Assembly: GCA_045658565.1 (NCBI GenBank)
Contig: JAZOVF010000031.1
Location: 64,222 to 128,221 of the forward strand
DNA length: 64,000 nucleotides
Origin: Eubacteriales bacterium
GTDB taxonomy: Bacteria > Bacillota > Clostridia > Oscillospirales > CAG-272
Direction: 5' to 3'
The translations under genes were made by a program, and so were the position numbers. The notes beneath the pieces are model-generated. The model was given only the letters and a program-made list of their open reading frames with translations, was not told the origin of the DNA and did not search any database. Shown here piece by piece: positions 5,477-9,150 of this stretch. How positions within the stretch are numbered: the first letter of the stretch is position 1; each line of letters begins with the position of its first letter.

Positions 5477-5505
5477 TTGACAAATATGTGAAATTCCTTT
5501 ATAAT
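5477..5505 (+). promoter_or_regulatory. consensus promoter TTGACA-17nt-TATAAT for the PqqD cassette
   Basis: Exact -35 box (5477-5482) and -10 box (5500-5505) with a 17-nt spacer, about 40 nt upstream of the GGAGGG SD and ATG5548. Confidence 0.7.
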
Positions 5506-5547: not shown

Positions 5548-6288
5548 ATGACGAGTTTTAATATTAAGCTTGCGGATAAAAATATTTTCATAGAATGTTT
5601 ATATGAATCCACAAAGACTTTTTGCAAAGATTATATTGTGGATGATATTGCCGCAGATATTACCGTCGGTATAACCCCTGCGGATATACAGTATGAACGT
5701 GAGAAATCGGATAAAGAACGTGAGATAGAAGGACTGCCGCCCTTTGCCCCCTCTCCTGCATATCTTGAAACCCTTGCCCTTTATCGTAAGATTGCCGATG
5801 CGATGATAGATTTTGATATAATTCTTTTCCACGGCTCGGCTATCTCTATGGACGGAGAGGCGTATATATTTACCGCTAAGAGCGGAACAGGAAAGTCTAC
5901 CCACACACGTTTGTGGCGAGAAGTCTTTGGCGACAGAGTTGTTATGATAAATGATGACAAGCCGCTTATAAAGATTACAGACTCGGGTGCTATAGTTTAC
6001 GGCACACCCTGGTGCGGAAAGCATAACCTTGGCTCAAATATATCAGCACCTCTTTATGCGATTGTTTCTCTTGAGCGTTCTAAGGTTAACAGGGTAGAGG
6101 AAAGCGATTCAAGAAAAAGCTTCCCTAAGATTTTAAGCCAGACTTACAGAACAAAAAATATTCTCGGGCTTCAAAAGACGCTTGCGCTTACGGACAAGAT
6201 GTTAAAGAGTGTTAAGATTTTTGAGCTTGGTTGTAATATGGACTCCGAGGCGGCAACGGTCGCATATAACGGAATGAAAGGTAAATAA
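5548..6288 (+). CDS. HPr-kinase-like P-loop protein (putative peptide/protein Ser kinase)
   Basis: 246-aa ORF with Walker A TAKSGTGKSTHT followed by ...DDKPLI...GTPWCGKH. It resembles the HprK C-terminal catalytic domain and lasso-peptide kinases. This is recognition only. Confidence 0.55.
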   Translation: MTSFNIKLADKNIFIECLYESTKTFCKDYIVDDIAADITVGITPADIQYEREKSDKEREIEGLPPFAPSPAYLETLALYRKIADAMIDFDIILFHGSAISMDGEAYIFTAKSGTGKSTHTRLWREVFGDRVVMINDDKPLIKITDSGAIVYGTPWCGKHNLGSNISAPLYAIVSLERSKVNRVEESDSRKSFPKILSQTYRTKNILGLQKTLALTDKMLKSVKIFELGCNMDSEAATVAYNGMKGK

Positions 6289-6292
6289 AACA

Positions 6293-6550
6293 ATGAAATT
6301 AAAAAACAACTTTATTACTCACACATCCGGTGACGAGCAGCTTATGATATCTGCAGGCGGTGATTTTAACGGAATGGTAAGAAGCAACAAGACCGCAGCT
6401 TTTATTATTGATATGCTGAAAGAGGAAACCACAAAAGAAAAGATAGTTGCCGCAATGCTTGAGATATATGATGCAGACGAGGCGATTATTTCTGCTGATG
6501 TAGATAAGGTTATCGATTCTCTTCGCAGCATTGGAGCGATAGATGAGTGA
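6293..6550 (+). CDS. PqqD-family protein (stand-alone RiPP recognition element)
   Basis: 85-aa ORF starting 4 nt after the upstream gene. The pattern (...NKTAAFIIDMLKEETTKEKIVAAMLEIYDADEAIISADVDKVIDSLRSIGAI) is typical of PqqD-like peptide chaperones. Confidence 0.7.
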   Translation: MKLKNNFITHTSGDEQLMISAGGDFNGMVRSNKTAAFIIDMLKEETTKEKIVAAMLEIYDADEAIISADVDKVIDSLRSIGAIDE

Positions 6551-7025
6551 TTTTTCCAGCTATGAGGAAGAGCTTTCCCGTCACGGTAAAATAATACATA
6601 CCAACGTAGGCTTCAGTATGATGCCGCTACTTAGGCAGCATAGGGATGTTATGATAATCGAGCGTCCCGAGGGAAGACTGAAAAAATATGACTGCCCCCT
6701 TTATAAGACAAAAAGTGGAAAGTATATTCTCCACCGTATAATCAAGGTGCGTGAGAATGATTATGTTATCTGCGGCGATAACTGCGTAACATTTGAACGT
6801 GGGGTAACCGATAAGCAGATTATAGGCGTTCTTACCGGTGTTATCCGTGACGGCAAAACTATCACAATGGATAACAAGGGGTATAAGCTGTATTATCATC
6901 TTTGGTGTGATTTTATTTATGTAAGAATTGCAATACTCCATATCATTCGCTTTGTAAAACGTATTCTTGCTCTGCCAAAAAGATTTTTCCGATTAGTAAA
7001 AAGACTTGTAGGCAAGAGAGAATAA
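6543..7025 (+). CDS. S24/S26-family (LexA / signal-peptidase-like) serine peptidase
   Basis: 160-aa ORF overlapping the PqqD gene by 8 nt. It has the nucleophile motif GFSMMPLL, an HRIIKV segment and a hydrophobic C-terminal helix. Confidence 0.65.
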   Translation: MSDFSSYEEELSRHGKIIHTNVGFSMMPLLRQHRDVMIIERPEGRLKKYDCPLYKTKSGKYILHRIIKVRENDYVICGDNCVTFERGVTDKQIIGVLTGVIRDGKTITMDNKGYKLYYHLWCDFIYVRIAILHIIRFVKRILALPKRFFRLVKRLVGKRE

Positions 7026-7286
7026 TCCGAACTCGCTCTAAAGTCTGAATTTTCAGCGCTTTCGGCACTTATCGCTCTTGCAAAGTCCGCACTTGGCTGC
7101 GAGCGCCAAGCACCAAAATCATCTTAAAATTAAGGCTTTAGAGTTCTGCGAATTTAAGAGATAGCTGATTTTGCGTAAGACAAGGTGAAAATTCGAGATA
7201 ATATGCGGATATTATGAGGGTTTTTACCGAAGCATTACACGAAATCAGCATCCTTCAAACGGGTTCGGATTGTTCTCTCTTGCCTA
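7009..7286. repeat. 27-bp inverted repeat (7009-7035 / 7260-7286) enclosing a ~225-nt non-coding insert
   Basis: taggcaagagagaataatccgaactcg pairs with cgggttcggattgttctctcttgccta. The only non-Watson-Crick positions are T/G, i.e. G-U on the + strand RNA. The left arm covers the S24 stop codon and the right arm ends just before the next gene's SD. Confidence 0.85.
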
Positions 7287-7297
7287 AAGGGTAAAAA

Positions 7298-8488
7298 ATG
7301 AAAGAACAAAACAAAAATACGGTATATAATGCCTTAATTTACATAATATCCTGCTGTTTAAACGGAAAAAGAGTTGAAAAAGAGCTTTTGTCTCACCTTG
7401 ACCTTGGGAGTATTTATTCCGCCGCATCAAATCATAGCCTTATAGCTATTGTTGCAACAGCTCTTGAGGATGCAGGCATAGTTTCAAAGCGCGCATCTGA
7501 GTTGAAGCTTAACGCTATAAGAAAAAATATGCTTTTTGATTCCGCCCGAGCCGAGATTTGCACAGCTCTTGATAAAAACTGTATTAAATATCTACCTCTT
7601 AAGGGCGTTATAATGAAAGAACTTTATCCTGCGGTTGGCCTCAGGCAAATGTCTGATAATGATATTTTGTTTGACCCGAATTACCGCAGTCAGGTTCGTG
7701 ACATTATGCTCTCTCTCGGTTACGAGAATAAGCATTTTGGTAGAAGCAACCACGATGTATATATGAAGGAGCCTGTTCTCAATTTTGAAATGCATGTTTC
7801 TTTGTTTGACCACCCTGCGTTGCCTCTGTTTAACGACTATTTCTCTGCCGCTTTTGACAGAGCGGTGTCTGACGGAAAAAGCTCATATGGGTTTGCTATG
7901 ACCGACGAGGATTTTTATATATTCATGAAAGCCCATGAGTATAAGCATTATGCAAATTGTGGCACAGGGCTACGCTCTCTTGTTGATGTTTATGTTTATC
8001 TTATGGCAAAGAGGGAAATCCTTAACTTTGATTATATAACCGCAGAATGCAAAAAGCTTGAAATATCCGAGTATGAGAGGGTAACAAGAGAAATTGCTCT
8101 TAATGTCTTTGCCCCTGAGACAGCAAAGGCATTGGTTTTGGCTGACAGAGGTGAGGGAGAATGCCCCGTATCCGATTACGATGCAGGATTCCTTGGGGAC
8201 TATATCAATATTTCCACCTACGGCTCTCACGAAACATATTTAACAAATCTCCTGACGAGGGAAAAGAAAAGCAAAAATTCAACGGGTGCTACAGCGAAGA
8301 TAAGATATATATTAAGTCTTACATTCCCGAAAATGGAATATTATGAGACAGTGCACCCCGGTGTGTCCAAAAAGAAATATCTCATTCCGTTCCTTTGGAT
8401 AAAGCGTTCTATAATTATTTTGGTAAAGAGGCCCGGCAGAACGATGAAAACCGTATGGGAAGTGGCACGTGCCAAGGTGAAAAAATAA
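7298..8488 (+). CDS. nucleotidyltransferase family protein (uncharacterised NTP_transf_5-like)
   Basis: 396-aa ORF with an AAAGGG SD. The sequence (LPLKGVIMKELYP...MSDNDILF...) resembles the uncharacterised nucleotidyltransferase family often found beside PqqD or lasso genes. Confidence 0.55.
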   Translation: MKEQNKNTVYNALIYIISCCLNGKRVEKELLSHLDLGSIYSAASNHSLIAIVATALEDAGIVSKRASELKLNAIRKNMLFDSARAEICTALDKNCIKYLPLKGVIMKELYPAVGLRQMSDNDILFDPNYRSQVRDIMLSLGYENKHFGRSNHDVYMKEPVLNFEMHVSLFDHPALPLFNDYFSAAFDRAVSDGKSSYGFAMTDEDFYIFMKAHEYKHYANCGTGLRSLVDVYVYLMAKREILNFDYITAECKKLEISEYERVTREIALNVFAPETAKALVLADRGEGECPVSDYDAGFLGDYINISTYGSHETYLTNLLTREKKSKNSTGATAKIRYILSLTFPKMEYYETVHPGVSKKKYLIPFLWIKRSIIILVKRPGRTMKTVWEVARAKVKK

Positions 8489-8500
8489 AGGATAACTATT

Positions 8501-9115
8501 ATGCTTGACTACACAAGAGCAGCAATTTCAAAAACAATTTCTGATATAAAAACTATTGTATTTGTCTCAACCCTTTTGGTTTACATATCGGGTATTATAA
8601 TACCTGTTTATAATCTTCTGTTTTTAAAAGAACCTTTGGTTCTTCATATTGTTTCTCTATGCCTGTCTGTTGCGGTTCTTGTTTTGTATTTGGTTTACAG
8701 AGATACAGACGACAAAAAGGAAAAAAAGAAGCTTAAGGTTAAGCGCAAACAAGTAAAAAAGGCAAACAAAAAGATTAGGTTAGTTTGCCGTGCATATACA
8801 GTTTTGTGCACGGGCTATGCCGTGTTTGCCCTCGGTGAGGAGATTTCCGCATTTTCAATGCTGATTACTTTGTTTGCCATTATCACTCTTATAATAAGCG
8901 TTATTTTTGAGCTTGTTAAGTGGGTAATATCAAGAAGAGCACATATGATTTATAACGCATTCAGAGAGGATTTAGCACCCTTTAATCCTGTAAACAGTGT
9001 AGGAAATATAATTAAGAGAGTAAAAGGCGAGCCTGTCATCAAGCACTCTTATCTTTCGGATAATGATAGGGAAATTCTCGATGATTATATAGATGAGAGA
9101 TATTCAACAAAATAG
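8501..9115 (+). CDS. hypothetical 4-TM membrane protein with Lys-rich loop
   Basis: 204-aa ORF starting 12 nt after the NTase gene. It has two pairs of hydrophobic helices separated by KKEKKKLKVKRKQVKKANKK. No family recognised. Confidence 0.6.
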   Translation: MLDYTRAAISKTISDIKTIVFVSTLLVYISGIIIPVYNLLFLKEPLVLHIVSLCLSVAVLVLYLVYRDTDDKKEKKKLKVKRKQVKKANKKIRLVCRAYTVLCTGYAVFALGEEISAFSMLITLFAIITLIISVIFELVKWVISRRAHMIYNAFREDLAPFNPVNSVGNIIKRVKGEPVIKHSYLSDNDREILDDYIDERYSTK

Positions 9116-9116
9116 T

Positions 9117-9150
9117 AAAAATGCGAGGGCAAATCCCCTCGCATTTTTTA
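9117..9150. terminator. bidirectional rho-independent terminator
   Basis: aaaaatGCGAGGGcaaatcCCCTCGCatttttt: a GC-rich stem flanked by an A-run and a T-run, between convergent genes. Confidence 0.7.

Follow-up and report, generated by a model that had tools for sequence, protein, structure and literature searches.

The window, a stretch of 64,000 nucleotides, contains a five-gene cassette (coordinates 5548–9115) encoding a 246-aa protein, a PqqD-family protein (6293–6550), a 160-aa protein whose homologues carry the name S24/S26 family peptidase (6543–7025), an NTP_transf_5 protein (7298–8488) and a 204-aa membrane protein. The cassette lies between a perfect TTGACA-17-TATAAT promoter at 5477–5505 and a terminator at 9117–9148, and the five genes therefore most likely form one transcript, with a repeat-bounded element inside it in sense orientation. 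As had been remarked in the initial annotation, the operon is tightly packed apart from one large gap, the 272 nt that now separate the peptidase and NTP_transf_5 genes. The order of the five genes is kept in relatives (L064–L067); no precursor peptide gene was noticed in the cassette. The features of the gap and its flanks are as follows.

6543–7025, plus strand: S24/S26-like peptidase gene with its 3’ end rewritten by the insertion; the inferred earlier end is ...CTT GTA AAG GGT AAA AAA TGA, overlapping the next ATG.
7009–7010, no strand: left copy of the duplicated TA target; TA flanks all full copies on both sides, and the relatives’ empty sites have this position once.
7011–7035, plus strand: left terminal inverted repeat, 25 nt, providing the peptidase’s last four codons (GKRE) and its TAA stop where the relatives end in ...KGKK.
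7036–7143, plus strand: left long hairpin, with an outer stem of 7036–7056 paired to 7123–7143; helices 2–4 are 94–96% paired in 12 copies.
7045–7135, plus strand: conserved core module, matched by covariance model R1 at 117 bits, with matches in six other genera as well.
Within the core, plus strand: a T-loop mini-hairpin, the hairpin CTTGGC-TGCGAGC-GCCAAG at 7092–7110, and the unpaired CACCAAAATCATC at 7111–7123.
7066–7087, plus strand: internal degenerate end-like sequence GGCACTTATCGCTCTTGCAAAG, corresponding to the true right end ...CTCTTGCCTA in 76-nt mini variants.
7153–7259, plus strand: AT-rich long hairpin on the right, its apex formed by the invariant palindrome AATATGCGGATATT at 7200–7213; compensatory change at 21 of 39 pairs in helices 5–7.
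7260–7284, minus strand: right terminal inverted repeat, 25 nt, placed by arm complementarity and by the boundaries of the copies.
7285–7286, no strand: right copy of the duplicated TA target, placed by TA-flanked copies and empty sites.
7287–8488, plus strand: native ribosome-binding site AAGGG and the NTP_transf_5 gene, with 272 nt now between it and the upstream stop codon.

Across the gap lies an inverted repeat with two 27-nt arms, 7009–7035 (TAGGCAAGAGAGAATAATCCGAACTCG) and 7260–7286 (CGGGTTCGGATTGTTCTCTCTTGCCTA), 224 nt apart and complementary at 25 of 27 positions, both mismatches being T opposite G when read on the plus strand; the 27-bp repeat with two such exceptions was correctly described in the initial annotation. 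The TAA of the peptidase open reading frame falls inside the left arm, and the right arm ends 2 nt before the AAGGG-N6-ATG of the next gene, so that the earlier placement of the arms, the left one holding the last peptidase codons and stop and the right one halting just short of the next Shine-Dalgarno sequence, also stands. A 22-mer taken from the arm occurs in the window at only two sites, which are the arms themselves (0.00 expected, 100 shuffles). Including both TAs the element is 278 nt long, with 274 bp between the TAs and terminal inverted repeats of 25 bp, and the 278 nt enclose no complete ORF of 40 aa or more. No promoter-like site was found in 7009–7286 on either strand, in agreement with the earlier failure to find one, and terminator consensus sequences are likewise absent inside the element. 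A search of positions 6000–8500 against Rfam 15 at E up to 10 returned only two snoRNA matches at chance level (E = 1.3 and 6.3).

Folding of a 301-nt stretch with the element gives energies far beyond those of shuffled sequence on both strands (–119.2 kcal/mol, z = –9.8 on the plus strand; –110.1 kcal/mol, z = –9.2 on the minus strand). The predicted fold is a three-way junction made of the 27-bp closing stem, the left hairpin at 7036–7143 and the right hairpin at approximately 7153–7259, and the nested pairing that had been claimed for the enclosed segment is recovered in it (7036–7056 with 7123–7143, and CTTGGC with GCCAAG at 7092–7110).

The homologous loci, a comparison of which the initial annotation had suggested, lack the insert in G027, L063 and L064–L067, where the 278 nt are absent. 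In the alignment with L064 similarity breaks near 7003 and picks up near 7284, and in G027 (peptidase 83% identical) the NTP_transf_5 gene directly adjoins that of the peptidase. The contigs with the closest peptidases (91–94% identity) have the junctions ...GACTCGCAAAGGGTAAAAAATGAAA or ...AAAAGGCTAAAGGGAAAAAAATGAAAG, and the C-termini of the closest relatives’ peptidases are KGKK or KDKK. The junction in the window reads ...GACTTG-TA-[274 nt]-TA-AAGGGTAAAAAATGAAAG; if TA is counted once the reconstructed end given above is obtained, which translates as ...LVKGKK* with the usual ATGA overlap, and if both TAs are removed the reading frame ends in ...LEG*, matching no relative. Because a single TA restores the relatives’ KGKK tail and removal of both does not, the TA is, by sequence reconstruction, a target duplication. 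An exact-protein look-up for other assemblies of this strain had none on record.

The element thus entered the peptidase gene at a TA among its final codons, where the stop TGA shared bases with the start ATG of NTP_transf_5. In doing so it swapped the tail ...VKGKK* for ...VGKRE*, with the stop codon in the left end of the element, broke the overlap and moved the genes 272 nt apart, and left the downstream ribosome-binding site intact. As annotated, the peptidase has a chimeric C-terminus; its translational coupling with the following gene is lost, and the downstream gene would now have to start translation on its own.

The closest relatives lack the insert, and their two genes overlap; it is therefore recent, and the 272-nt gap is not a conserved feature of the operon. 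This argues against a site selected by the host for RNase III, at which cleavage within the 27-bp stem would uncouple the stability of the two halves of the operon mRNA. Such a reading draws on the length of the stem, with its two G.U pairs in the sense transcript, on the presence of an RNase III gene in the window’s genome, and on the stems of the Neisseria Correia (NEMIS) repeats, which if transcribed are bound or cut by RNase III (PMC2649163, PMC10969869), but given the empty sites we consider it unlikely. In the operon mRNA the element would fold on itself into the three-way junction with its 27-bp closing stem, and by analogy with the Correia elements that stem is a potential RNase III substrate; a double-stranded RNase III site, likewise proposed in the initial annotation, is then plausible as a consequence of the insertion.

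The genome of the window (1.67 Mb, 38 contigs) has three full copies of the element with unrelated flanks, one in the window (C31), one in C21 (95% identical) and one in C14 (88%). These three full copies are 88–100% identical, and their similarity ends exactly at TAGG...CCTA, the boundary sequences being TAGGCAAGAG...CTCTTGCCTA. Decayed partial copies are seen at G000:C34:10330-10530 (right half, 78% identity) and G000:C16:32642-32700 (31 nt of an end, attached to inner sequence). Carriers within the genus numbered 9 of 37 genomes and, when the sample was enlarged, 53 of 213 species. The hosts are metagenome bins from the ruminant gut that carry the labels Eubacteriales, Clostridia or Oscillospiraceae bacterium. 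A single genome has as many as 32 matches to the end sequences, with 20–30 in some genomes, and as many of these lie at contig ends they point to recent bursts of the element that break assemblies. TA lies outside both repeats in every copy examined, within a wider target that is a symmetric T-TA-A. The terminal ends are conserved in about 50 copies, among which there is only one orthologous pair.

Subfamily A, to which the ends TA-GGCAAGAGAG...CTCTCTTGCC-TA belong, is accompanied by a sister subfamily B of 276 nt with ends GCCGTAAGAGAGTCGAAC (also given as GCCGTAAGAGAG). A copy of B (L002, G000:C21:~1710-1985) abuts the C21 copy of A with a shared TA and has the same two-hairpin layout and apical AATATGCGGATATT; in other genomes B is nested in a copy of A at a TA, or abuts A as a two-end remnant. 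The flank of the C21 copy had a tRNA-like appearance, for which ARAGORN reported no tRNA, and it is the sister element that lies there. Derivatives shortened by internal deletion, to 37–43 nt (just the two ends), to 76 nt and to about 150–170 nt, are also TA-flanked and dispersed, and the right end of the 76-nt form corresponds to the internal positions 7066–7087 of the full element. All of this is as usual for MITEs, and it also shows that an element needs no more than its ends to spread.

The many unrelated sites, the nested and abutting insertions at TA, the deletion derivatives and the bursts show that the family is mobile. We conclude, with a probability of about 0.85, that the segment is a MITE copy, a non-autonomous DNA transposon of 274 bp with 25-bp terminal inverted repeats and a duplicated TA. 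A MITE-like insertion was one of three readings offered in the initial annotation, and it is the one favoured by the dispersed repeat-bounded copies, the TA at both ends and the empty sites in relatives. The family is a sizeable one in uncultured ruminant-gut Clostridia, with its 53 of 213 species in one genus and relatives in other families of the order. Phage and plasmid collections gave no match to the element, and with no description of the family found in Rfam or in the literature searched it is apparently undescribed.

Another of the earlier readings was an inverton. Invertons are single-locus switches with an internal promoter, a recombinase and inverted repeats of 10–40 bp, and here too inverted repeats bracket a segment of a few hundred bp beside a gene start; a recombinase acting on the 27-bp repeats would flip the segment and switch downstream expression. 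This geometry fits, inversion of Correia elements has been reported (PMC10969869, citing Elbeyioglu 2017), and a related pair of copies provides an example of inversion in place. The copies L099 (G101:C13:2103-2380) and L116 (G146:C98:10442-10719) occupy the same insertion site, with flanks that are 97–98% identical, and differ in that the inner ~70 nt of the left hairpin are inverted between 19-nt arms; identity is 248 of 280 positions as found and 271 of 279 after flipping. Because one related copy has its inner hairpin inverted in place, inversion can happen within these elements. The flipped inner segment is nevertheless seen in just 1 of 49 copies and a flipped right hairpin in none, and the tail predicted for the flipped form would give the peptidase a length that none of its close homologues reaches. 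Moreover, unlike an inverton, the unit is multi-copy, present at many unrelated loci with a TA duplication and empty sites; it has no promoter-like site in either orientation, and no recombinase gene lies within about 4 kb, the ten neighbouring ORFs being without a recombinase domain. As the identity of the segment an inverton is thus not supported and very improbable, and of the earlier readings the MITE is preferred.

The MITE would have moved by cut-and-paste, with a DDE transposase acting in trans. Strict duplication of TA is typical of the IS630/Tc1-mariner insertion-sequence families, and an enzyme of this type is the most likely candidate since the duplication here is strict. An autonomous partner with the same ends was not found among the hosts, all of them metagenome bins, which usually lose short repeated contigs, so that one may have escaped detection. 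A search for DDE_3 (IS630-type) transposases in nine carrier genomes, then in 213 genomes of the genus, gave a single hit, in an element with the unrelated ends TACTGTTCTCTAATTAAAAC.... This element (L078, G147:C118) has its transposase split over two overlapping frames, an arrangement that may represent a programmed frameshift, and is located ~60 nt downstream of a tRNA-like sequence.

A second candidate, a 1.1-kb IS30-type element present in 67 of the 213 genomes including that of the window, was rejected as the source: its ends, AGGTGAATTATACTATTAAGTGCAACAC, are unrelated, and it shows no co-occurrence with the MITE (20 shared genomes against 16.7 expected). Members of the IS30 family duplicate 2–3 bp and insert beside their own ends. 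Copies of this IS30-family element (L287–L298; G000:C23:35237-36094) are 85–93% identical across many species of the genus, and it usually sits just after a terminator hairpin. In the element’s own genome neither approximate matches to the end sequences nor the ORFs between candidate pairs in C30 revealed a parent. No pair of ends at insertion-sequence spacing was detected in 20 copy-rich genomes, in viral contigs or in 116 public genome loci, where only MITE-sized pairs were present, and one pair 4.6 kb apart proved to be two separate copies.

The predicted structure is well conserved. In 12 diverse copies 93.6% of cells are paired, and 35 of 96 pairs have changed on both sides, whereas shuffling yields 18.1 such pairs, with none of 500 shuffles reaching 35, and slid controls yield 7–13. 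The pairing signal has no strand, and the argument of the initial annotation that the two G-U pairs favour a plus-strand RNA therefore does not generalise: when the 77 pairs that both strands are predicted to form are counted over 49 copies, G.U cells number 68 for the plus strand and 58 for the minus strand (A.C on the plus strand). Template-switch correction of palindromic DNA during faulty replication can mimic compensatory change, so the covariation is not proof of a function in RNA.

Conservation extends to elements with other ends. In the window’s own genome an nhmmer search with the core profile found only the three copies; subfamily B and the other genera came within reach only with a covariance model of the left-hairpin core. 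This model recovers the same ~280-nt architecture elsewhere in the order, in six other genera from five families, with unrelated inverted repeats; across these genera the unpaired ACAAAAATC is invariant and 12 of 17 consensus pairs show compensatory change. In the right hairpin the apical AATATGCGGATATT is invariant, while its stem covaries. The core is thus conserved across subfamilies with unrelated ends, which is the reverse of the usual pattern in a MITE.

The orientation of the element next to genes is also unusual. Among 57 distinct full copies the right end lies within 30 nt of a ribosome-binding site and the start of an outward ORF in 22, the copy in the window being one of these, and the left end in 2 (p = 3.6e-5), a bias of 22 to 2 that a neutral element would not be expected to show if its ends are symmetric. 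Several causes were considered and rejected. The GC skew over ~10 kb on each side is positive for 24 copies and negative for 19, which does not implicate the replication strand, and orientation relative to the regional gene strand is likewise split 24 against 19. Promoters and terminators are excluded by the lack of any consensus inside the element, accessibility of the ribosome-binding site by its predicted equilibrium value of 0.596 both in native orientation and when flipped in silico, and an asymmetric target by the symmetry of the general T-TA-A. The bias then reflects either oriented integration or selection on the transcript. At two loci a strong promoter reads straight into the left end of the element: in L102 (G236:C55) a perfect TTGACA-17-TATAAT ends 8 nt before the element’s TA, and in L104 (G160:C43) TTGCAA-17-TAAAAT lies ~45 nt upstream, with the gene start 12–17 nt past the right end in both. 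As read from these promoter sequences, the element would be the whole 5’ leader of the following gene.

A further rival is a hairpin-based single-strand DNA transposon of the PATE or REPIN kind (derivatives of IS200/IS605 or RAYT), recognised by way of its hairpins and inserted beside a TA without true duplication. The orientation bias, the extensive and conserved hairpins and an inner structure that is better kept than the ends could all be accommodated in this way, and the flanking TAs are formally compatible with a TA target plus a TA carried by the element. Lagging-strand-dependent insertion predicts an orientation bias relative to the replication strand, but the copies have none by GC skew or by regional gene strand; the target is symmetric, the inverted repeats, long and perfect, form the true termini, and dispersed derivatives are made of the two ends alone. 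We judge a single-strand transposon to be very improbable compared with the MITE.

Rather less improbable, and compatible with identity as a MITE, is that the conserved core is the functional unit, a structured RNA or protein-bound DNA that acts in cis on the downstream gene, with the repeats as its vehicle. Several results speak for this: the architecture shared with six other genera whose ends are unrelated, with its invariant unpaired ACAAAAATC and compensatory pairs; the invariant apical AATATGCGGATATT on a covarying stem; the 22 of 57 copies in which a ribosome-binding site and start codon lie next to the right end; and the two copies that make up an entire leader. Set against them are the lack of strand asymmetry in the wobble pairs and a minus strand that folds equally well, the identical accessibility of the ribosome-binding site in the two orientations, the lack of an internal promoter or terminator consensus or of an Rfam match, and the replication errors that can imitate compensatory change. 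Short derivatives without the core are dispersed too, and the core is therefore not needed for spread. On balance we regard a cis-acting core as doubtful, though core conservation with unrelated ends and the orientation bias are not explained by a neutral MITE. It is similarly a tentative and somewhat unlikely proposition that the left hairpin’s ~90-nt core and the right hairpin’s apical GCGGAT make up a functional structured nucleic-acid module, one that has preserved its fold and the unpaired ACAAAAATC in several families of the order while exchanging its inverted-repeat vehicle. Such a module could owe its one-way placement directly upstream of ribosome-binding sites, whether by retention or by insertion, to an activity there, be it as a leader RNA, as an intercistronic RNA or as a device for oriented target capture.

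Several families of small repeats invite comparison with the MITE. Correia elements (CREE/NEMIS) duplicate a TA. They consist of inverted repeats and a conserved directional core with a target duplication (PMC2649163), and copies are mostly located just 5’ of genes (71 of 113 in FA1090). The element described here resembles them in being non-coding, in having a conserved directional core between inverted repeats of about 26 bp, in length variants arising by internal deletion, in its target duplication and in the lack of a known cognate transposase, and in-place inversion is reported for Correia (PMC10969869). It differs in having no sequence similarity to them, in its hosts, which are uncultured ruminant-gut Clostridia and not Neisseria, in its length (278 bp in the window, against 104–157 bp), in its two long hairpins in a three-way junction, in the lack of a promoter consensus, and in a core common to subfamilies with unrelated ends. 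Because sequence and host differ, Correia/CREE is the closest known analogue and the element is not a member.

The repeat unit of pneumococcus (RUP) is about 107 bp long, duplicates TA and is mobilised by IS630-Spn1. RUP elements cluster and insert into one another (PMC10969869), and they share with the present family the status of a MITE in Firmicutes, the TA duplication and the clustered and nested insertions. For RUP the IS630-family partner is known, whereas the one element of IS630 type in the 213 genomes has different ends. The ERIC elements, or enterobacterial intergenic repeat units, are proteobacterial, 127 bp long and without a defined TA duplication. Like the element in the window they are imperfect palindromes co-transcribed with flanking genes, and their effect on mRNA level depends on how they lie in the transcript (PMC10969869). 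By comparison, the TA duplication is defined here, and an orientation-dependent RNA effect of the window’s element is only suspected. If the orientation bias reflects function, the family would be a Clostridial counterpart of the Correia elements, reshaping 5’ leaders and operon junctions.

Single end-like sequences are also present right upstream of start codons, TAGGCAAGAGAGAACAATATG at G000:C38:11775-11796 and CTCTCTCTTGCCTAAATAATACGGAGATAAATAATG at G000:C30:41009-41046, and these may be remnants of the element or natural look-alikes of ribosome-binding sites.
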